Virus record (IMG/VR): IMGVR_UViG_3300029115_000083 | DNA length: 39,765 nucleotides | Source: a virus | Direction: 5' to 3' (one strand) | In this document: positions 2,134 through 29,836 of the stretch, piece by piece | Numbering within the stretch: position 1 is the stretch's first letter | How the letters are laid out: each line of letters starts with the position of its first letter | Made by a program: the position numbers and the translations under genes | Notes under the pieces: generated by a model | Databases searched by the model: none | What the model saw: the letters and a program-made list of their open reading frames with translations, nothing else | Told to the model about the DNA's origin: nothing

Positions 2134-3132
2134 TTACTCACCTGTTTTCAGAACTGCACCTGCTTTCAGAACTGCAAACGGGCATCTCTTGTTTTTGTCC
2201 GTCTTAAGAGCGTTGATCGGATTCGGGATCTCCCATCCGAGACGCATTACTGCACGAAGAGCGACCATATCGTTCTGCATCAGGTTGTATGCGATAGTTC
2301 CGTCTGTGTTCTGTACAACACCCTCTGAGAAGAGTTTGAACGTGATGTCCTGACGGATAGAGTATACGAGTTGTGAGAAATCTCCGGAAATCATAAGCGC
2401 CTTTGACTTATCAAACGCTCCATTGTTCGGGAAGTTCATCGGAGATCCGTCAAGCGCATACTGTGTGGTTCCCTGCAGATCCTGTTTGAACAGCGGATCC
2501 CCGTTTGCGTTCTTCAGGCCTCTGAGTTTTGCTCTCATGGAAATGTCTGCCATGTGACCGTTTACAAAGTATCCGCAGTCTTCAATATGTGCGATCACCC
2601 CGTCCTCTGCCATGATCTTGTCATACAGACTGTCTGTCGCTCCTAATGTTACGACTGCTCCCGCTTTTGTCGCGGTTGTAACCACATCTTCTCTCCATGT
2701 GTTCGGTTTATTTTCACCGAACAGCACTGCACTGTCGATGACCTTCCCAAATGCTTCTGTAACTCTCGGTTTTACTTCTCCCCAGATGTCATACTCAGAA
2801 TCATCCAGAACTGCTTCCGGAATCGGAACAATGACTGCAATCTCTTCGGCAGTGATGAACTTCTTGTCCCATGCCTGCTTTGTAGTTTTCTTCTGTCCGG
2901 TATCACCGTTTACGAAATATGCAATCGGCAGCATATCCAGTACCGGCATTTTGTACTGTCTGCTTGTCATGTTTGCCAGTTTACGACCTCTTGACAGGAC
3001 GGCTGACTGTGCGATCGTTCCCTGAATGATCTCATTGGATTCCTGAGTCGGAATCAGAGTCTCCGCTCCAGTACGATCAATGATGTTTACATCTTCTTCA
3101 AACAATCTTAAATTCATTCTTTTATTCTGCAT
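2134..3132 (-). CDS. Major capsid protein, HK97 fold
   Basis: 332-aa ORF with ggagg SD, placed after the scaffold gene. The central and C-terminal sequence is typical of HK97-family capsids. The N-terminus MQNKRMNLRLFEED carries a Prp-type leader. Confidence 0.9.
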   Translation of the reverse strand: MQNKRMNLRLFEEDVNIIDRTGAETLIPTQESNEIIQGTIAQSAVLSRGRKLANMTSRQYKMPVLDMLPIAYFVNGDTGQKKTTKQAWDKKFITAEEIAVIVPIPEAVLDDSEYDIWGEVKPRVTEAFGKVIDSAVLFGENKPNTWREDVVTTATKAGAVVTLGATDSLYDKIMAEDGVIAHIEDCGYFVNGHMADISMRAKLRGLKNANGDPLFKQDLQGTTQYALDGSPMNFPNNGAFDKSKALMISGDFSQLVYSIRQDITFKLFSEGVVQNTDGTIAYNLMQNDMVALRAVMRLGWEIPNPINALKTDKNKRCPFAVLKAGAVLKTGE

Positions 3133-3146
3133 TTACTCTACCTCCA

Positions 3147-3746
3147 TTATCTTCGTGCGGCAGCTCTGATCCGGTCATTGATGGAAGCGTTCATGTTTCC
3201 ACCAGCACCATTGGAAGCATTACCTGCTGAAGAATCTGCAATCCGGTAAGAACCGCCACCGGCAAATCTCGGATTCTCCTTCAGGAACTTCTCTGCTGCC
3301 TTTTCAAATGTCGTTTTATCATCTACCATTTTGGAAACCTTGTAAGTCACATAGTCCAGATCATCCGCCTTGACACCTTTTCCGGATAAAAATTTCTCGT
3401 TCTTCATCTGCTGGACTTCATTTCTGGAATTTTCCAGATCCTGCTGCAGCTGTGTCACATTCGGCTGATTCTTTTTCTGCTGTTCCTTATAATCGGCAAT
3501 TGCCTGATTCACCTGCTGTTCTGTCATTCCCTGCTGCTGAAAATAAGAACGAAGTGCCGCTTTTTCGGCTCTGTCTGCTCTCGCATTGGCAATCTCTTCT
3601 GCCTGCGCAAAGCTGTATGAGCCCTGATTTCCTGATCCACCGGCATTTCCCTGGCTGCCGTTACCTGCTCCAGCGTTTCCACCCTGTCCACCAGAGCCAA
3701 CTCCGCCGCCGTCTTCAAAGAGCTGTAAAAACATTCTTTTTCTCAT
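3147..3746 (-). CDS. Scaffolding protein
   Basis: The ORF track starts at 3794, but the ATG at 3746 has ggagg plus a 5-nt spacer. The product starts MRKRMFLQLFEDGGG, followed by a Gly/Asn/Ser-rich tract and charged helical sequence. It lies between the Prp and capsid genes. Confidence 0.8.
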   Translation of the reverse strand: MRKRMFLQLFEDGGGVGSGGQGGNAGAGNGSQGNAGGSGNQGSYSFAQAEEIANARADRAEKAALRSYFQQQGMTEQQVNQAIADYKEQQKKNQPNVTQLQQDLENSRNEVQQMKNEKFLSGKGVKADDLDYVTYKVSKMVDDKTTFEKAAEKFLKENPRFAGGGSYRIADSSAGNASNGAGGNMNASINDRIRAAARR

Positions 3747-3834
3747 GCTTACCTCCAAATATGAGTGTTTTTCCAGAGCTTTTTCTGTCTTCATGTTTTG
3801 GACATAATAAAAAGCACCCTCACTGGATGCTCAT

Positions 3835-4122
3835 TTACTCAAATTGTATGCAATTGTATTCCTGGTCAATTACTGCAATCCCCAGGAACCATGAATCCAC
3901 CAGAAGTTTCCCACCATCTGACAGATCTTCCCATTCGATCACAGTCATCCCACTGGCTGTTTCTGCACGGATTCTGTCACCTGTCAGATCTTCCAGGGAA
4001 TTGATCAGGTTGCAGGTCAATGCTGATACCGCAGCACAGGCACGATCGATACCATCCGGACTCTTCTGGCAGGCATGACCGTTCATGCAGATGCTGTGAT
4101 CTGTTATTTTGATCGTTATCAT
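3835..4122 (-). CDS. prp: Prp-family cysteine protease (ribosomal-processing protease homologue, DUF464)
   Basis: 95 aa with the GHA...DRACAAVSALT His/Cys motif characteristic of Prp/YsxB. SD aggagg is present. Confidence 0.8.
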   Translation of the reverse strand: MITIKITDHSICMNGHACQKSPDGIDRACAAVSALTCNLINSLEDLTGDRIRAETASGMTVIEWEDLSDGGKLLVDSWFLGIAVIDQEYNCIQFE

Positions 4123-23286: not shown

Positions 23287-23505
23287 TCACCTCTCTCCCT
23301 CTTCATCTTTCTCAACAATTATTCTTATCGGCAATTCATTTGATATAAGGCATGTTCCCACAACGCTGATGCTCAATAAACCAAGCGCCATCAATATCCG
23401 CATCACCATAATGCTTATATCTGTTGGAAAATAACGTTCGCCAACAGTCACAAGAAGTAATGGCACAAAAACCAGTATCCAACCAATTATTTTTCTTAGT
23501 TTCAC
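23287..23505 (-). CDS. Small membrane protein (early)
   Basis: 72 aa with a GTG start preceded by agaggtgag and two hydrophobic helices. Confidence 0.5.
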   Translation of the reverse strand: MKLRKIIGWILVFVPLLLVTVGERYFPTDISIMVMRILMALGLLSISVVGTCLISNELPIRIIVEKDEEGER

Positions 23506-23552
23506 ATTCTCACCTCTCTCCCTCTATCTTTTTTATCAATTTAATTTGATTA

Positions 23553-23750
23553 TTAGGGTAAAAACATATACTCCAATGGCATATTGTAAAGCTTACTAAG
23601 TTCTCTGCTTTGTGAAATTGTAGGCTCTGACTTACCTTTTTCCCAATTTACCACTGTATTTTTCGAGACATGCATCTCCTTTGCTACATCTTCTTGAGTC
23701 ATTTCAGCATTTACTCTAGCCGCCGCAAGGGAAATTTTTAACTTATTCAA
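23553..23750 (-). CDS. Cro-like XRE-family HTH regulator
   Basis: MTQEDVAKEMHVSKNTVVNWEKGKSEP is an XRE HTH. The likely TTG start at 23750 lies 6 nt after gggaggtg; the ORF track extends to 23768. It is divergent from the cI-like gene. Confidence 0.8.
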   Translation of the reverse strand: MNKLKISLAAARVNAEMTQEDVAKEMHVSKNTVVNWEKGKSEPTISQSRELSKLYNMPLEYMFLP

Positions 23751-23794
23751 TTTATTCACCTCCCACAAATCTTATTTTTCCTCGTTACGCTTAT

Positions 23795-23823
23795 ACTATA
23801 AGTCAAATTTAATTTGATGTCAA
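23795..23823 (-). promoter_or_regulatory. Early (PR-like) promoter TTGACA-17-TATAGT
   Basis: On the minus strand, ttgaca (23823-23818), a 17-nt spacer and tatagt (23800-23795). The spacer is exactly the palindromic operator. Confidence 0.65.
23803..23817. promoter_or_regulatory. Palindromic operator TCAAATTtAATTTGA
   Basis: Perfect 7+1+7 palindrome. A related copy lies at 23536-23549 (tcaatttaatttga), and the half-site AGTCAAATT repeats at 23861-23869. Confidence 0.6.
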
Positions 23824-23852
23824 CACTAAAATACAATTTTTTTGATTTTTAG

Positions 23853-23881
23853 TTGATTTTAGTCAAATTATATTGTAGTAT
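23853..23881 (+). promoter_or_regulatory. Candidate repressor-gene promoter TTGATT-17-TAGTAT
   Basis: ttgatt at 23853-23858, a spacer containing the agtcaaatt half-site and tagtat at 23876-23881, 25 nt upstream of the cI-like ATG. Confidence 0.4.
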
Positions 23882-23906
23882 GTGATTATGAAAGAGGTGA
23901 CAAAAT

Positions 23907-24536
23907 ATGACTGATATAGAACAGAAAAAAATTTTTTCTAAGAACTTAAACTTTTATTTGTCCAAAGCAAATAAAACCCAAAAAGAAGTCGCTGATGCGA
24001 TATCTGTTTCTCCACAAACATTTAATACATGGTGTCAAGGTATAGCTTTGCCAAGAATGGGAAAAGTTCAACGACTTGCCGATTATTTCCATATTGAAAA
24101 ATCTTTTTTAATAGACGAACATACCGAGCAACCTTTTCCTAAATCTAATATAATAAAAGTTCTTGGACGCGTTGCCGCCGGCATTCCACTAGAAGCCATT
24201 ACGGATATTGTAGATGAAGAAGAAATCCCTGAAGAATTAGCAAAAACAGGTGAGTTTTTTGGATTAAAAATTAGTGGTGACTCAATGGAACCAGATATTC
24301 ATAACGGAGACACAGTAATTGTTAGAAAACAAGATGATGCCGAGTCTGACGAAATCGTTATTGCTCTTATCAACGGAAACGATGGCGTATGTAAAAGGCT
24401 AAAGAAATATGCAGATAGTATTGCTCTTATTTCGCTAAATCCTAATTACGAACCTATGTATTTCAGCCAAAAAGAAATCAGCGAGAAGCCTGTTAAAATT
24501 ATCGGGAAAGTTGTAGAACTACGGCGAAAATTTTAA
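23907..24536 (+). CDS. cI/LexA-like repressor (XRE HTH + S24 peptidase)
   Basis: 209 aa with N-terminal HTH KTQKEVADAISVSPQTFNTW and a C-terminal S24 domain (Ser in ISGDSMEP, Lys in VCKRLK). Confidence 0.9.
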   Translation: MTDIEQKKIFSKNLNFYLSKANKTQKEVADAISVSPQTFNTWCQGIALPRMGKVQRLADYFHIEKSFLIDEHTEQPFPKSNIIKVLGRVAAGIPLEAITDIVDEEEIPEELAKTGEFFGLKISGDSMEPDIHNGDTVIVRKQDDAESDEIVIALINGNDGVCKRLKKYADSIALISLNPNYEPMYFSQKEISEKPVKIIGKVVELRRKF

Positions 24537-24590
24537 GCGGATACAAACACACATTCATGTATTTATTTTTAACGCAGATTGGAGGATTTT

Positions 24591-25115
24591 ATGAATAAAA
24601 CAGTTAGAATTATTGTAACTATTTTGGGTGGATGGTTTGGTCTTCATAAATTTATTGATAAAAAAATTGGAATGGGGATTCTTTACCTTTTCACATTTGG
24701 TTTATTCGGAATTGGATGGATTTACGATATATTTAAAGCTTTTTCTTCTTCACCTTCATCGTTCCAGTTAAAGCAGTATATCGCGCCTTCTGTTCCTGGA
24801 ATATTACATATTAATGATAATTCTTATAACTTAGCGTACAATTATAATCAGGTTAACCTCTACACTAAAGAACCTTTTTATTTCGATATTCCATTCGGTT
24901 CTTCGCTTGGTATTCAGCCGGAACCAACAAACAAATACGATAGCCGTGCAATTTTTTTCACTTGGAAAAATACAAATATCGGTTATATCCATAAAGGTCA
25001 ATTGCAGGACATGATACACGATTATCTTTCTCCGAACCGTTATGTAATAGCAACATACGAATCCATAGATTGCGGAAATGTAATGATCACTCTGTCATTT
25101 TATAAAAAAAAGTAA
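24591..25115 (+). CDS. TM2-domain membrane protein fused to a C-terminal HIRAN-like domain
   Basis: The ATG at 24591 follows ggagg; the ORF track uses a TTG at 24579. The N-terminus ILGGWFGLHKFIDKKIGMGILYLFTFGLFGIGWIYD is a TM2 motif. The C-terminus LGIQPEPTNKYDSRAIFFTWKNTNIGYIHKGQ matches the HIRAN core (EP.N.YD..AI....iGy). Confidence 0.7.
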   Translation: MNKTVRIIVTILGGWFGLHKFIDKKIGMGILYLFTFGLFGIGWIYDIFKAFSSSPSSFQLKQYIAPSVPGILHINDNSYNLAYNYNQVNLYTKEPFYFDIPFGSSLGIQPEPTNKYDSRAIFFTWKNTNIGYIHKGQLQDMIHDYLSPNRYVIATYESIDCGNVMITLSFYKKK

Positions 25116-25225
25116 TAAGTACGGAATCTGTAAACAGGTAGATAATTATGTGGTGTATTTTATACCACAGTTGTCTGTGATGAAATTGGTATAACCGCAT
25201 ATGCGATTATATAGAAACACTTTTT

Positions 25226-25684
25226 ATGAGGAGGTTCAACTTGAATATTGATGAATACATAGATCAACGACTGGATGCACAGATAAAATGGTATAGTGAA
25301 AAATCCTCTCACGCTCAAAAAATGTACAAACGTTCTCAAATTATAGAAATAGTCCTTGCTTCTAGTATTCCTCTTCTTTCAGGATATACATCAAATCGGA
25401 TTTATATTTCTATAATAATTGGTGTGTTTGGAGCTATAATAGCCATTATCGAGTCATTATCCAAACTATACAAATGGCATGAAAATTGGATTCAATATCG
25501 CACAACTAGCGAATTATTGAAATACCATAAACATCTATACTTAACCCAGTCGCCACCTTACACCACTGGCGATGCTACTATAGAGAATATTTTTATAAAA
25601 AACATCGAAGATATTATTTCTTCCGAGAATAACCAATGGAAAGCGAATGCTGCATCTGATTCTTCAAAGAAATCTTCTAATTAA
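25226..25684 (+). CDS. DUF4231/SLATT-like two-TM protein
   Basis: 152 aa. LDAQIKWYSEKSSHAQKMYKRSQIIEIVLASSIPLL (TM1), IYISIIIGVFGAIIAIIESL (TM2), then YKWHENWIQYRTTSELLKYHKHLY. An alternative TTG start at 25241 follows gaggagg. Confidence 0.7.
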   Translation: MRRFNLNIDEYIDQRLDAQIKWYSEKSSHAQKMYKRSQIIEIVLASSIPLLSGYTSNRIYISIIIGVFGAIIAIIESLSKLYKWHENWIQYRTTSELLKYHKHLYLTQSPPYTTGDATIENIFIKNIEDIISSENNQWKANAASDSSKKSSN

Positions 25685-25859
25685 CTGGCTCATATGTTTT
25701 TTCAAAAACATCTGGCTTACAAGGATACTGTTCTCCTCTAATGCCAGTGATAATCCAATCGCCTGGAGCGGCTCTCAAAGGGCCTTCAAGTGTTTGAATG
25801 ATCATCTCTTCGTCAGTTTGATATGCTTCAATTACTATTGGTTTTTTTCTAAATTTCAA
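25677..25859 (-). CDS. PGDYG-like small protein, antisense between the SLATT and TIR genes
   Basis: FRKKPIVIEAYQ...PGDWIITGIRGEQYPCKPDVFEKTYEPV resembles PGDYG-domain phage proteins. The likely TTG start at 25859 follows gaggtg; the ORF-track GTG is at 25868. Its 3' end overlaps the SLATT stop by 8 nt. Confidence 0.55.
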   Translation of the reverse strand: MKFRKKPIVIEAYQTDEEMIIQTLEGPLRAAPGDWIITGIRGEQYPCKPDVFEKTYEPVN

Positions 25860-25891
25860 ACTATTCACCTCGTTTCAGAAAGGAGTTAATT

Positions 25892-26311
25892 ATGCCAAAC
25901 TTATATAACTATCGTTTATTTATTAGCCACGCATGGAAATATGGACCAGACTACATTCGTTTAGTAAATCTTCTCGATAATGCATCATATTTTTCATACC
26001 ATAATTATTCTGCACCTAGAGAAAAACCTCTTTTTCCTTCTGGTACACCTTACACATCTACAGATATTGCAAATAAAATAACCGATAAGATTCGTCCAGC
26101 CCAAATTACTTTAGTTATATCTGGAATGTATGCTGCTTATAGTGATTGGATGAAATATGAAATAGACGAATCCAAAAGAATGGGAATGCCTATTTTAGGA
26201 ATTGTTCCTTACGGTCAAGAACGGATTCCTCTCTATGTTCAGCAGAACGCAACTGAAATTTTGCGTTGGAACACTGCCTCCATCGTATCGGCTATAAGAC
26301 GTTATGTTTAA
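25892..26311 (+). CDS. TIR-like protein, ThsB/DUF1863 type
   Basis: 139 aa with SD aaaggag. YRLFISHAWKYGPDY (beta-1) and SDWMKYEIDESKRMGMPILGIVP parallel ThsB RWVRYEIMKSIEKGNKIIGI, including the conserved Glu. Confidence 0.7.
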   Translation: MPNLYNYRLFISHAWKYGPDYIRLVNLLDNASYFSYHNYSAPREKPLFPSGTPYTSTDIANKITDKIRPAQITLVISGMYAAYSDWMKYEIDESKRMGMPILGIVPYGQERIPLYVQQNATEILRWNTASIVSAIRRYV

Positions 26312-26443
26312 GCCATTTTCATTATACCAATATTTTTTTGCTGTTTCAATGCATGCGCAATTTACTTTGTATAGCAAAAAACATCCTTGTTTCAATAGGC
26401 AATAATATTTTTATATTTCTTTTTTCAGAAAGGACGTGATCAC

Positions 26444-26989
26444 ATGCCATTACCAAAACCAAACACCTACACAGTTGAAGATATCTATCTTCTCCCAGAT
26501 GGACAACGCGCCGAGCTGATTGATGGTCAGATCTACAATATGGCTCCACCAAGTCCATTGCATCAGAAACTTGTAATGGAATTATCTGCAACCATCAGAA
26601 ACTACATTAAATCAAATAGTGGTTCCTGTGAGGTTTATCCTGCTCCATTTGCTGTTTTTCTTAATCAGGATAATTATAATTATGTTGAGCCGGATATCTC
26701 CATAATATGTGATCCAAACAAAATGAACGACAGAGGATGCAACGGCGCTCCTGATTTCATCATTGAAATTGTATCGCCAAGCAGCCAGCGCATGGATTAC
26801 CTTACAAAATTATTTAAGTACCGTACAGCCGGTGTCCGCGAATACTGGATTGTCAATCCAATGACACGGATCGTCCAAGTCTACTGTTTTGGTGAGCCAG
26901 AAGATTCTACGCAATATTCTTTTGACGAAGAAATCAGCGTGGGAATCTACAATGATTTAAAGATCCGTATTGCCGATCTGCTGAAATAA
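26444..26989 (+). CDS. Uma2-family (DUF820) PD-(D/E)XK endonuclease
   Basis: 181 aa with ELIDGQIY, APDFIIEIVSPSS and REYWIVNP, which are hallmark Uma2 motifs. Confidence 0.85.
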   Translation: MPLPKPNTYTVEDIYLLPDGQRAELIDGQIYNMAPPSPLHQKLVMELSATIRNYIKSNSGSCEVYPAPFAVFLNQDNYNYVEPDISIICDPNKMNDRGCNGAPDFIIEIVSPSSQRMDYLTKLFKYRTAGVREYWIVNPMTRIVQVYCFGEPEDSTQYSFDEEISVGIYNDLKIRIADLLK

Positions 26990-26996
26990 ATAAAAA

Positions 26997-27020
26997 CCGC
27001 TCCTGCGCCAACAGGAACGG
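26997..27020. terminator. Hairpin after the Uma2 gene (imperfect 9-bp stem)
   Basis: ccgctcctg-cgccaa-caggaacgg pairs at 8 of 9 positions. An A-run precedes it on the plus strand, so the U-tract sits on the minus-sense side. Its function as a plus-strand terminator is uncertain. Confidence 0.3.
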
Positions 27021-27192
27021 TCGAGCGATGAAACATACACCAATATGTTTCTCTATTAAGTACTCCGAAGAGATACCCAATTTTCAAATAATATTGTATC
27101 ATCTCCGGAGCAGCCACGCAAGAGAACAAAAGTTCTCGGGCTGTTATTTTTATACTCATTTTTACGTATATTGAAGAGAAAGGTGATATAAT

Positions 27193-28584
27193 ATGCCGAG
27201 TAAAATTGAACGCTGTGCCATTTACATCCGTGTGTCTACCGCTGAACAGATGATGCACGGTAAATCCCTGGAAGCGCAAAAGCAGTACCTGACCAATTAC
27301 GCCAAAGAACATAATATGACCGTTGCTGGAGTTTATGCTGACGAGGGTAAAACTGCCCGTAAAGAATTAAAAAAGAGAAAAGCTATCCATTCACTCCTCG
27401 AAGATGTAAAAGCCGGAAAAATTGATGTGATCATCTTCTGGCGGATTGACAGATGGTTCCGTAACCTGTCTGATTTTTACAAGGTGCAGGAAGTCTTGGA
27501 TGATAATAACGTCCATTGGATCAGCACCAGTGAACCCGGAATCAATATGGAAACCAGAGACGGTCGACTGCAGCTGAATGTAGTTCTATCTATCGGTCAG
27601 AATGAGGTCGATACCACCAGCGAACGTATCAAATTCGTAAATGAAGCATCTATCCGTCAGGGAAAGCTGATCTTCGGCGATGTGAATATGGGATATGGTT
27701 ATAAATCCGGAATCATTGACGGCGTAAAACGCATGGTAAAAGATCCTGATCGAGAAGACACTGTAAATGCCTTTTATCGTTTTTTCTTTAAGCACCATGC
27801 AAAAGGGCTTTCCATGCGCTATATTCAGGAAAATTATGATCCGGATTTTACATGGGCGAATATGCGAACACTGCTATCGAGTGAATTTTACAAAGGAACC
27901 TATCGCGGGATTCCATACTGCCCTGCTTACCTGACAGAATCTGAATGGAACAATCTGCAGGAAATACAGAACGCAAATGTTAAGCGTGCTCCTTCTGGCC
28001 GGATTTATCTTTTCAGTGGCATGATAAATTGTCCGATCTGTGGACGCAGGCTTAGCGCAAGAGGCGGTTCGTCCATTATCAACAGGAAAACCGGTGCCAA
28101 AAAAGTATACTGCTATTACCGATGCAATAAAGCTTTTATTGATCACAAATGTACATACAAGCACATGGTAAGTCAAAATCTCATAGAACAATACCTGATT
28201 GAGCATCTGGAATACGAATACAATAAATTTAAAATAAAATGTAAAAAAATTGAAAAGGAACAAGAAAAAAAGAAGAAAATTCAGACTCCGGAAAAGCTCC
28301 AGAAAGAATTGGAACGATTAAATCTTCTCTTCCAGAAAGGAAGAATCGAATGGGATTATTACAGCAAAGAATATGATCGGATTGAAAACGAACTGAATGA
28401 ATTGTTAAATGCGGCTCCGGAATTAGAACCTGATTATGCTTATCTGGAAGAGCTGCTGAATACAGACTTTAGAACAATGTACTACAATTTAACCCAAGAA
28501 AACCGCAGAGCTTTCTGGCACTCCATTATCCGGGAGATTCACCTGAATACTGATCATACCGTTGACTCTGTTGATTTCTTATAG
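27193..28584 (+). CDS. int: Large serine recombinase (phage integrase)
   Basis: 463 aa with the resolvase catalytic motif AIYIRVSTAEQ, a recombinase domain, the zinc ribbon CPICGRRL...CYYRC and a C-terminal coiled coil. Confidence 0.92.
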   Translation: MPSKIERCAIYIRVSTAEQMMHGKSLEAQKQYLTNYAKEHNMTVAGVYADEGKTARKELKKRKAIHSLLEDVKAGKIDVIIFWRIDRWFRNLSDFYKVQEVLDDNNVHWISTSEPGINMETRDGRLQLNVVLSIGQNEVDTTSERIKFVNEASIRQGKLIFGDVNMGYGYKSGIIDGVKRMVKDPDREDTVNAFYRFFFKHHAKGLSMRYIQENYDPDFTWANMRTLLSSEFYKGTYRGIPYCPAYLTESEWNNLQEIQNANVKRAPSGRIYLFSGMINCPICGRRLSARGGSSIINRKTGAKKVYCYYRCNKAFIDHKCTYKHMVSQNLIEQYLIEHLEYEYNKFKIKCKKIEKEQEKKKKIQTPEKLQKELERLNLLFQKGRIEWDYYSKEYDRIENELNELLNAAPELEPDYAYLEELLNTDFRTMYYNLTQENRRAFWHSIIREIHLNTDHTVDSVDFL

Positions 28585-28645: not shown

Positions 28646-29836
28646 TTATTTTACCCGTAGCTTCTGTCCGGCGTAGATCAGATTAGGGTTACTTATTCCG
28701 TTAAGCTGCGCAACCTTCTGGTAGGACGTGCCGTATTTAGCTGCAATACCGGAAAGCGTATCTCCGCTCTGCACGGTGTAATACTGTGCGGATGAAGCAC
28801 CTGACTTACCGTTCACGATATTCTGAATCGTATTGTAGTCATATCCGGCAGCTGAAAGACGATTCTTTCTGTCGTTTCCGTTGCCCCACTTACCGGCAAG
28901 AACTTCCTGTGCGATCTGCTCATTTGATTTTCTGGCAAACGCAGCGTTGATCTTGTTCTGGACTTCTGTGTAACGACTACCGAGAACAACCTTTCTTGTG
29001 TCACCGTTACCATATTTACCAGCTTTCACTTCGTTCACCAGTGTATCTACGGATGCAGAATAGATATGGTCGATGAAGCTCTGCACTTCCGTATACCGTG
29101 TTCCGAGGGCGTTCTTGCGGTTGTCACCATCACCGTACTTGCCCTGCATGACTCCAACAACCAGATCGAGCGTGGATCCGCCCGGAGTATTCACTGTCGG
29201 TTTCGGTGTTTCTGCCGGTTTGGTTGTGTTTCCTTTTCCGGCATACTTGTTCCATGCGTCCTTGTCGCCGTAGAATTTATCCAGATCGAGATTACCGCCC
29301 CATCCATTCAATCTACCACAAGAGCTATACTGCCGGATAACACAAGTATAAGCTCCCTCATTCCACGGCTTATCCTGATAGCCTGTGGCGTTCATGTCTG
29401 CGTACTGTGCAATCCAGAGTCCATAGTTTCCGATATTGTTGAATTTATAGGCTACAGACTGCGAACAATACAAAAGAGGTCTTACGCCTGTTTTCTGGTA
29501 TACATAGTCAAGCCAGCTCTTGCACCATGCAAAATCCGAGCTACCGAATGCCGGGTTGCTCTTCCCCTCCCAGTCAAGACAGAGAATTGCTTCGCCTACA
29601 CGTTTTCCGATTCTATCAAGGAAGTAATCTGCTTCTTTCTGGTAATCTCCACCATTCGCATAATGGTAGATACCGAGACACTTTCCGGCGTTCTTAGCCT
29701 GTGCGTAAGCTCTTGTGAAATCTGGATTCACGTAGCCTGTTCCCTCTGTTGCCTTTACGATCACAAAATCGCACGGGACCACACTGAGGTCAATTCCTGC
29801 CTGATAACTTGCAATATCAATTCCATTCATTGCCAT
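28646..29836 (-). CDS. Endolysin: GH25 muramidase + 3 CW_7 repeats + C-terminal LysM
   Basis: 396 aa. [10 protein letters not shown]...VIVKATEG is GH25. Three repeats follow GK(Y/W)GNGxxRKxxLGxRY..VQ, with the third being [53 protein letters not shown]...[10 protein letters not shown] is LysM. Confidence 0.92.

Follow-up and report, generated by a model that had tools for sequence, protein, structure and literature searches.

A phage-borne TIR and SLATT cassette with an intervening PGDYG-family gene: a probable type VII Thoeris system of a temperate gut-Clostridia siphophage

Do two small plus-strand genes of a temperate virus, one coding for a SLATT membrane protein and one for a TIR protein, act together as a single antiviral system, and what is the role of the minus-strand gene that separates them? 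This question is raised by positions 25226-26311 of the IMG/VR virus record IMGVR_UViG_3300029115_000083, the full 39,765 nucleotides of which are called the window here. The homology and gene-order evidence argues with good confidence for a type VII Thoeris system that serves a temperate siphophage of gut Clostridia as cargo for lysogenic conversion, and the cassette is probably genuine and functional. It comprises the following genes:

25226..25684, plus strand: thsH-like gene, coding for a single-domain SLATT_1/DUF4231 protein with two transmembrane segments (2-TM), 152 aa from ATG 25226
25677-25868, minus strand: small PGDYG-family gene, 63 aa from GTG 25868, probably 60 aa from TTG 25859
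25892..26311, plus strand: thsB gene, coding for a 139-aa ThsB-type TIR protein, catalytic glutamate E90, codon 26159-26161

A preliminary description of this DNA had placed two open reading frames (ORFs) at the first and third of these positions, and both were retrieved there, with every peptide string quoted from them. They had been presented as an adjacent pair. Their pairing is conserved, as described below, but they are not neighbours, since the gap of 207 bp between them is occupied by the minus-strand PGDYG gene, which had been missed.

Assignment of the first gene to the SLATT family was based on profile scores above the curated cutoffs, namely those of Pfam DUF4231 (PF14015; E 9.4e-22, 77.8 bits, cutoff 24.7), Pfam SLATT_1 (PF18181; E 5.2e-12, 46.3 bits, cutoff 26.3), and NCBIfam SLATT_1 (NF033634; E 2.9e-35, 121.1 bits, cutoff 41). 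In addition, the protein matches phrog_7395 (E 1.4e-40), contains a hydrophobic hairpin (residues about 33-50 and 54-76), and was modelled by AlphaFold2 (AF2; 84 homologues) as four helices (3-47, 54-77, 79-101, and 114-145), with a predicted local distance difference test (pLDDT) score of 88. The earlier identification as a SLATT/DUF4231 2-TM protein was thus confirmed. The structural comparison proposed with it yielded the four-helix model but no Foldseek match (best E 0.44); a PDB profile search with the SLATT protein gave no match. Translation most likely starts at TTG 25241, resulting in a protein of 147 aa, because homologues begin at that position; this codon is located six nt after a Shine-Dalgarno sequence (AGGAGG, 25229-25234). 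As had been claimed before, no SIR2, SLOG, or Macro domain occurs in the SLATT protein, nor was one found in the neighbouring proteins upon a Pfam scan. Similarly, the ThsB-type TIR identity of the third gene was upheld, with matches to Pfam ThsB_TIR (E 4.7e-12), PADLOC ThsB1 (E 2.9e-9), and phrog_6988 (E 3.6e-38). Its residue E90, the glutamate of the motif KYEID, is aligned to the catalytic glutamate of all ThsB proteins listed in the type VII Thoeris study (Yirmiya et al., bioRxiv 10.64898/2025.12.03.692087) and is conserved in at least 97% of 121 homologues.

A TIR protein combined with a SLATT protein constitutes type VII Thoeris (ThsB + ThsH), which was validated in December 2025 in that study. 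Three such systems defend, namely those of an Alteromonadales scaffold and of Pseudohongiella in E. coli and that of Bacillus licheniformis SCCB 37 in B. subtilis. Their TIR proteins, originating from three TIR clusters, produce canonical cyclic ADP-ribose (cADPR), and this upon infection only (bioRxiv 10.64898/2025.12.03.692087). Moreover, added cADPR arrests cells carrying the Alteromonadales-scaffold or the B. licheniformis system, whereas 2'cADPR and 3'cADPR do not. In the model of ThsH, an oligomer spans the membrane, and positively charged pockets between its protomers represent the proposed cADPR site (bioRxiv 10.64898/2025.12.03.692087). Hence, the earlier view of the SLATT protein as a sensor-less effector had to be abandoned, as the SLATT protein itself is the proposed cADPR receptor. 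The same applies to the statement that no characterised system with this architecture was known, given the validated type VII systems (bioRxiv 10.64898/2025.12.03.692087) and a phage form proposed in 2022 (Iyer, Burroughs, Anantharaman, and Aravind, Viruses 14:1977, PMC9503650). The latter authors reported a neighbourhood of TIR and 2TM-SLATT genes in phages of Firmicutes, including exactly such a cassette in Javan281 and SN10 beside helix-turn-helix (HTH) and zincin (ImmA) genes, and predicted a membrane effector gated by an ADP-ribose derivative that limits superinfection. That work was purely computational, and the PGDYG gene is unmentioned in it (PMC9503650). In the main, the combination of TIR and SLATT is not a new finding, the locus adding one member to a known system; the PGDYG gene is its sole new element and has not been described before.

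Comparison of the window ThsB with the TIR sequences of Table S1 of the type VII study (bioRxiv 10.64898/2025.12.03.692087) revealed 41% identity to a TIR associated with a '3TM' effector, 40% to the type IV TIR of E. coli 328, 35-36% to two cADPR-making type VIII TIRs, and 29% (E 2e-20) to the validated type VII ThsB of Pseudohongiella, all of which belong to cluster 2734565194 of that study. Outside this set, the window ThsB is 70% identical to gp14 of the Clostridioides difficile phage phiCDKH01. For ThsH, close relatives served as a proxy for the validated proteins. Downstream of genes for relatives of the Pseudohongiella ThsB (90% and 69% identical), tandem SLATT_3+SLATT_1 proteins of 294 aa are encoded, and a ThsB of B. 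altitudinis, 75% identical to the validated one of B. licheniformis, is preceded by a single-domain SLATT protein of 156 aa. The window SLATT protein shares 43% identity with the latter (E 6e-32), on the basis of which the window cassette is assigned to the single-SLATT branch of type VII Thoeris. The locus thus combines a stand-alone TIR protein possessing the catalytic glutamate, a SLATT effector gene near thsB, and homology to a validated ThsB and, by proxy, to a validated ThsH. It differs from the known type VII systems in that it is phage-borne and located in a lysogeny arm. Furthermore, its gene order is thsH, PGDYG (minus strand), and thsB, whereas proteobacterial type VII systems are overlapping thsB-thsH pairs, and its effector consists of one SLATT_1 domain of 147-152 aa instead of the tandem SLATT_3+SLATT_1 protein of 294 aa of the Pseudohongiella type. 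Two complete ThsB and tandem-SLATT (type VII-like) pairs were seen side by side on a Providencia stuartii contig (L184, 1523-4313), in a defence island beside an integrase gene and genes for BrxA, PIN_12, and TnsA-like proteins.

Conservation of the gene neighbourhood was the second line of evidence. A megablast search with the DNA of positions 24500-27200 against 50,697 phage records gave no match, so relatives were retrieved by protein-level searches. The sampled loci comprised 80 SLATT-anchored viral contigs, 16 prophage loci retrieved via two abundant TIR homologues, and the 80 viral loci nearest to the window PGDYG. The SLATT and TIR genes occurred together in 74 of the 80 SLATT-anchored viral loci and in all 16 TIR-anchored prophage loci, so that the co-occurrence of both genes as a syntenic unit, a check proposed in the preliminary description, turned out positive. 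The pairing is well beyond chance. All three genes were present in 74/80 SLATT-anchored contigs and PGDYG in 77/80. Of the four contigs without a PGDYG or TIR gene, three break off within about 550 nt of the SLATT gene. The remaining one, L139 (IMG/VR 3300045988_103231), contains SLATT and PGDYG genes, with no TIR gene within about 3 kb downstream, and a second locus, L041, likewise carries SLATT and PGDYG genes without a TIR gene; these two may be decayed cassettes or SLATT-PGDYG pairs working with a TIR protein encoded elsewhere. Three gene orders were encountered (SLATT-PGDYG-TIR, SLATT-TIR-PGDYG, and TIR-SLATT-PGDYG), involving three TIR clades, and PGDYG is convergent with the preceding plus-strand gene in every arrangement. 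All 16 TIR-anchored prophage loci display the order SLATT(+)/PGDYG(-)/TIR(+), with the cassette flanked by ImmA/repressor genes on one side and a serine or tyrosine integrase gene on the other, at varied chromosomal sites and downstream of a variable cargo gene. In a collection of annotated phages, 34 records matched the SLATT protein (phages of Staphylococcus, Streptococcus, Enterococcus, and Clostridium). Phage phiCDKH01 shares the layout SLATT(+)/small ORF(-)/TIR(+), and SLATT and TIR genes followed by a small minus-strand gene were found in S. aureus phage X2, Enterococcus phage IME197, and Streptococcus phage Javan199. The SLATT and TIR genes overlap in phage X2, and PGDYG lies downstream of overlapping thsH-thsB genes in related phages. 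For region 3004-4019 of Javan199 (MK448702.1), GenBank gives only short hypothetical coding sequences; the intact genes there are SLATT (3004-3438), TIR (3435-3833), and PGDYG (3825-4019, minus strand). The cassette is common in prophages of human-gut Clostridia, single protein clusters being found in hundreds of assemblies.

The genetic context of the cassette is that of a temperate phage. According to the family assignments of its ORFs, the window represents the whole genome of a temperate siphophage, the host group of which is the gut Clostridia. Genes for DNA polymerase, primase-helicase, terminase, portal, tape measure, and endolysin are located on the minus strand, and those for a LexA-like repressor, a TM2-HIRAN protein, the SLATT and TIR proteins, an Uma2 protein, and a serine integrase on the plus strand. 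This complete temperate genome, together with the recurrent position between repressor/ImmA and integrase genes in related prophages, bore out the earlier placement of the module in a lysogeny arm. The elements surrounding the cassette are the following:

23553-23768, minus strand: Cro-like HTH gene, divergent from the repressor gene
23823-23795, minus strand: strong putative promoter upstream of the Cro-like gene (early promoter), near the repressor and Cro-like genes
23907..24536, plus strand: repressor gene, HTH + Peptidase_S24 (LexA/CI-like), first gene of the lysogeny arm (Pfam Peptidase_S24 E 5.9e-30, HTH_3)
24579-25115, plus strand: gene for a TM2-domain protein with a weak HIRAN-like C-terminal region, between the repressor and SLATT genes
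26444-26989, plus strand: gene for an Uma2-family 'putative restriction endonuclease', directly downstream of thsB (Pfam E 2e-32)
26995-27022, minus strand: strong terminator-like hairpin between the Uma2 and integrase genes (12-bp stem, T tail)
27193..28584, plus strand: serine integrase gene, end of the lysogeny arm (phrog_95 integrase, E 3e-97)
28646-29836, minus strand: endolysin gene, convergent with the integrase gene (phrog_291 endolysin, E 1.1e-82)

Other signalling systems with a related logic were considered. Type II Thoeris (ThsB and a TM-Macro effector, with His-ADPR as the signal) is similar in that a TIR-made signal activates a membrane-spanning effector; it differs in its signal and in the Macro sensor domain of its effector, and no Macro domain occurs in the window locus. 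Types I and II Thoeris were rejected, as neither SIR2 nor SLOG nor Macro domains were found. Cyclic oligonucleotide-based antiphage signalling systems (CBASS) with SLATT/2TM effectors resemble the locus as well, in that a nucleotide second messenger gates a SLATT membrane effector, but their signal generator is a CD-NTase (SMODS), which the lysogeny arm of the window lacks. Indeed, CBASS was dismissed for want of a cyclase, the five other ORFs of the arm (23553-28584) coding for the Cro-like HTH protein, the repressor, the TM2-HIRAN protein, the Uma2 protein, and the serine integrase.

As to the mechanism, ThsB would sense another phage infecting the lysogen and, by means of E90, turn NAD+ into a cyclic second messenger derived from ADP-ribose, which is most probably canonical (N1) cADPR. 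This messenger would be bound by the small 2-TM, ThsH-like SLATT protein in its helical, cytoplasmic portion. That protein may then oligomerise and breach the membrane, so that the cell would be killed or arrested before the invader matures, which would amount to abortive infection or superinfection exclusion. Such a sequence of infection, cADPR production, SLATT oligomerisation, membrane damage, and abortive infection is what a ThsB-type TIR protein beside a SLATT membrane protein is expected to bring about in type VII Thoeris. The preliminary description had suggested a TIR signal acting on a membrane effector, and this still appears to be the best interpretation, as it is essentially the published mechanism. 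Canonical cADPR as the signal is the least certain step, as it is deduced from the type of effector.

Several points weigh against assignment of the cassette to type VII Thoeris. First, a PADLOC search, as proposed earlier, recognised the TIR protein through ThsB1, but no model of PADLOC 2.0.0 matches the SLATT protein or PGDYG, its library being older than type VII. Second, a BLASTP comparison of the window SLATT protein with a proteobacterial ThsH relative, a tandem-SLATT protein of 294 aa, was not significant, although the Pfam families are the same. Third, thsH and thsB are co-directional (plus strand) with the minus-strand PGDYG gene between them, so that their co-transcription is hypothetical. 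Fourth, the type VII systems of the published study were validated experimentally, whereas the window cassette is known from sequence alone. Fifth, three out of four Bacillus type VII systems failed to protect B. subtilis when cloned 'under native promoters' (Table S2, bioRxiv 10.64898/2025.12.03.692087). Lastly, the TIR proteins nearest to the window ThsB (40-41% identity) have as their partner a caspase-like effector (type IV, N7-cADPR) or the unverified '3TM' effector, and because these nearest relatives serve other effector types, the TIR clade does not fix the signal.

Among the other explanations, one extends the type VII interpretation rather than replacing it. It regards the locus as a three-gene cassette, in which PGDYG, antisense to thsB, would be a phage-made inhibitor, either a sponge for a cADPR-type signal or an antagonist of ThsB or ThsH. 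The phage might thereby silence its own Thoeris system when going lytic, and stand-alone copies of the gene might serve as counter-defence against type VII systems. This possibility, considered tentative, is indicated by the orientation, the distribution, and the fusions of PGDYG, and a phage-side off-switch or self-immunity factor remains a working guess for its function. A prophage-encoded abortive system plausibly needs a means to spare its own lytic cycle. A precedent for prophage self-immunity is BstA/aba, in which aba is a DNA element and not a protein; as PGDYG is a protein gene, this precedent is an analogy only.

The PGDYG ORF is convergent with thsH, with an overlap of 8 bp at the SLATT stop codon, and divergent from thsB, the ATG of which is 23-32 bp away. 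The protein represents a shortened PGDYG domain, as it matches Pfam PGDYG (PF14083) with 28.4 bits, against a gathering cutoff of 27, over profile positions 1-34 of 102 only, and it matches phrog_419 (E 1.4e-25). An ORF artefact was ruled out by homologues in 18,329 clusters and by the existence of both Pfam and PHROG families. The window PGDYG shares 54-95% identity with small genes found at the corresponding cassette of Clostridioides, Staphylococcus, Enterococcus, and Bacillus phages or prophages, and the profile match at the same cassette of Javan199 has an E value of 1e-32.

Regarding distribution, an adjacent PGDYG gene was found for all dereplicated viral SLATT clusters (35/35 at 90% identity, 18/18 at 70%, and 5/5 at 50%), in addition to the 77 of 80 viral loci mentioned above, and thus across the three gene orders, the three TIR clades, and Clostridia, Clostridioides, Staphylococcus, Enterococcus, Streptococcus, and several Bacillaceae. 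It is, moreover, the best conserved of the three genes, with 54-66% identity between Clostridia and Staphylococcus, Enterococcus, or Bacillus, compared with 35-43% for SLATT. Among species-representative genomes, PGDYG occurred at 6/6 loci of Bacillaceae and Sporolactobacillus, mostly in recognisable prophage settings, and at 0/10 non-Bacillota loci with a single SLATT and a TIR gene. On strong genomic evidence, PGDYG belongs to the Bacillota/phage form of the cassette. It is not needed for defence itself, because these ten loci lack it and the validated proteobacterial type VII systems were tested as two-gene pairs of TIR and effector (bioRxiv 10.64898/2025.12.03.692087). Both facts fit an inhibitor.

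The orientation of PGDYG at the cassette is always that of the lytic genes, and in the window it is the only lysogeny-arm gene oriented in this way. A promoter-like site on the same strand was located just beyond thsB:

26321..26349, minus strand: sigma-70-like promoter, consensus match (TTGAAA, 17-nt spacer, TG-n-TATAAT), 10 nt beyond the thsB stop codon

This site (26349-26321) matches the consensus at 11/12 positions and has the extended -10 TG; it ties for the best match in 23400-27300 with the early promoter upstream of the Cro-like gene. A match of equal quality on the same strand was found within 180 nt of the thsB stop codon in 22 of 63 distinct related loci, and within 25 nt in 15/63, compared with 1/63 on the opposite strand, so that its position is conserved. 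As the interval between PGDYG and thsB is too short to accommodate a promoter, the PGDYG transcript would start at this site and would run antisense through all of thsB into PGDYG. The promoter signals are consensus matches only and are therefore putative. No repressor operator motif (the GTCAAATT repeats of the cI-cro region) occurs near the antisense promoter, so nothing ties it to induction, which speaks against the inhibitor hypothesis. Furthermore, constitutive expression of an inhibitor would cancel the defence of the prophage itself.

The wider PGDYG family provides arguments on both sides. Homologues of PGDYG are fused to the anti-Thoeris sponge domain Tad2 in a single ORF at 18 viral loci (eight clusters at 90% identity in a scan of viral contigs); these homologues are about 70% identical to the window PGDYG, and no SLATT or TIR gene was found near the 18 fusion loci. 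Fused domains among the 144 nearest representatives include Tad2-like (four), DUF551 (five), PF21825 (one; Sequestin), and Lar (one). Fusion to Tad2 or Acb4 was the criterion by which Sequestin (PF21825), a 3'cADPR sponge, was revealed (bioRxiv 10.1101/2025.07.12.664507). Like Tad2 and Sequestin sponges, PGDYG is small, phage-specific, and scattered over lytic-oriented positions; unlike them, it has no sequence similarity to any known sponge. Indeed, a Pfam scan revealed no Tad2-like (PF11195) or PF21825 domain in the window PGDYG, only its homologues carrying such fusions. Against an inhibitor stands also the size and promiscuity of the family, for which 18,329 cluster representatives were counted at E<=1e-3 and in which PGDYG occurs as a single domain, as a tandem array (up to 28 repeats), or as an N-terminal module; two or more copies were present in 22 of the 150 nearest representatives, one of them (P0361) being a giant protein of 3743 aa with arrayed copies. 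About half of the closest relatives lie far from TIR and SLATT genes, as 43 of the 80 viral loci nearest to the window PGDYG have PGDYG without the cassette. These stand-alone genes are located in head, lysis, or early modules, mostly co-oriented with their neighbours (38/41 upstream, 35/42 downstream), which include PF21825/crAss001_48, DHH, and methylase genes. In addition, most fusion partners are not known anti-defence domains, and neither a structure nor a functionally characterised homologue was obtained; searches of the PDB by sequence and by profile gave no match and a single-sequence AF2 model (pLDDT 52.5) was judged unusable. A full-text literature search for 'PGDYG' retrieved no papers.

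If PGDYG were an off-switch or antidote, this would account for the ability of a prophage to harbour a suicide system and still complete its own lytic cycle. That it inhibits type VII Thoeris, for instance as a sponge for canonical cADPR, and that its thousands of stand-alone and Tad2-fused forms in other phages make up a large, unrecognised anti-Thoeris family, is conceivable though on balance doubtful. PGDYG would then be the first inhibitor of cADPR-based bacterial immunity, and a family without literature, comprising more than 18,000 protein clusters, would gain a function. Tad1 and MoTad2 fail to block type VII Thoeris (bioRxiv 10.64898/2025.12.03.692087), and no inhibitor of, or phage countermeasure against, this type is reported in the Thoeris and sponge literature cited here. 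The Bacillaceae loci retrieved carry PGDYG abutting thsB, including that of a B. altitudinis ThsB closest to the ThsB of the non-defending Bacillus sp. P003 system. PGDYG may be relevant to the failed defence of several Bacillus type VII systems, which were cloned with their native flanks.

A second alternative keeps the architecture and the logic of the type VII interpretation and replaces the messenger by N7-cADPR, 2'cADPR, 3'cADPR, or a new ADP-ribose derivative. The affinities of the window ThsB suggest as much, as its closest relatives are those of type IV and of the unverified '3TM' configuration and its link to the Pseudohongiella ThsB is one of 29% identity only; moreover, a single TIR cluster serves several effector types (bioRxiv 10.64898/2025.12.03.692087). 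However, the three validated SLATT-type systems, with TIR proteins from three clusters, all use canonical cADPR, which suggests that the effector type predicts the signal. In addition, the Alteromonadales-scaffold and B. licheniformis systems respond to cADPR and not to 2'cADPR or 3'cADPR, and the type VIII ThsB proteins, 35-36% identical to that of the window, produce cADPR too (bioRxiv 10.64898/2025.12.03.692087). Another messenger is therefore rather unlikely.

Thirdly, the TIR protein might be a self-contained, NAD+-depleting effector, the SLATT protein being unrelated or merely regulatory and no second messenger being involved. Many bacterial TIR proteins act in this way, and the type VII study warns of it for unverified configurations (bioRxiv 10.64898/2025.12.03.692087). 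Yet, the window TIR is a bare ThsB-type domain of 139 aa without a sensor or partner domain, belongs to clusters of signal-producing ThsB proteins, and has a strictly conserved SLATT partner, and SLATT-type systems are activated by cADPR, which makes this explanation very improbable. Finally, that the SLATT and TIR genes are independent morons brought near each other by chance, as the intergenic gap with its minus-strand gene and the lack of a demonstrated common transcript could suggest, is hardly credible and effectively refuted already by synteny, in view of their near-total co-occurrence across genera, TIR clades, gene orders, and integrase types and their overlap in phage X2.

The remainder of the lysogeny arm around the type VII-like cassette contains further candidate cargo. 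The slot of the TM2-HIRAN gene (24579-25115) is filled by other genes in related prophages, coding for DUF1828/1829, T5orf172/MUG113, and HSDR_N-domain proteins and for uncharacterised proteins of 277-355 aa, and looks like a variable cargo hotspot. At the other end, the hairpin between the Uma2 and integrase genes (26995-27022) could block read-through from the late operon, which would otherwise run antisense into the cassette. The Uma2 gene matches the PADLOC candidate single-gene defence system PDC-S03 (E 1e-48) as well as phrog_16228, and is probably a further defence-type moron of the lysogeny arm.

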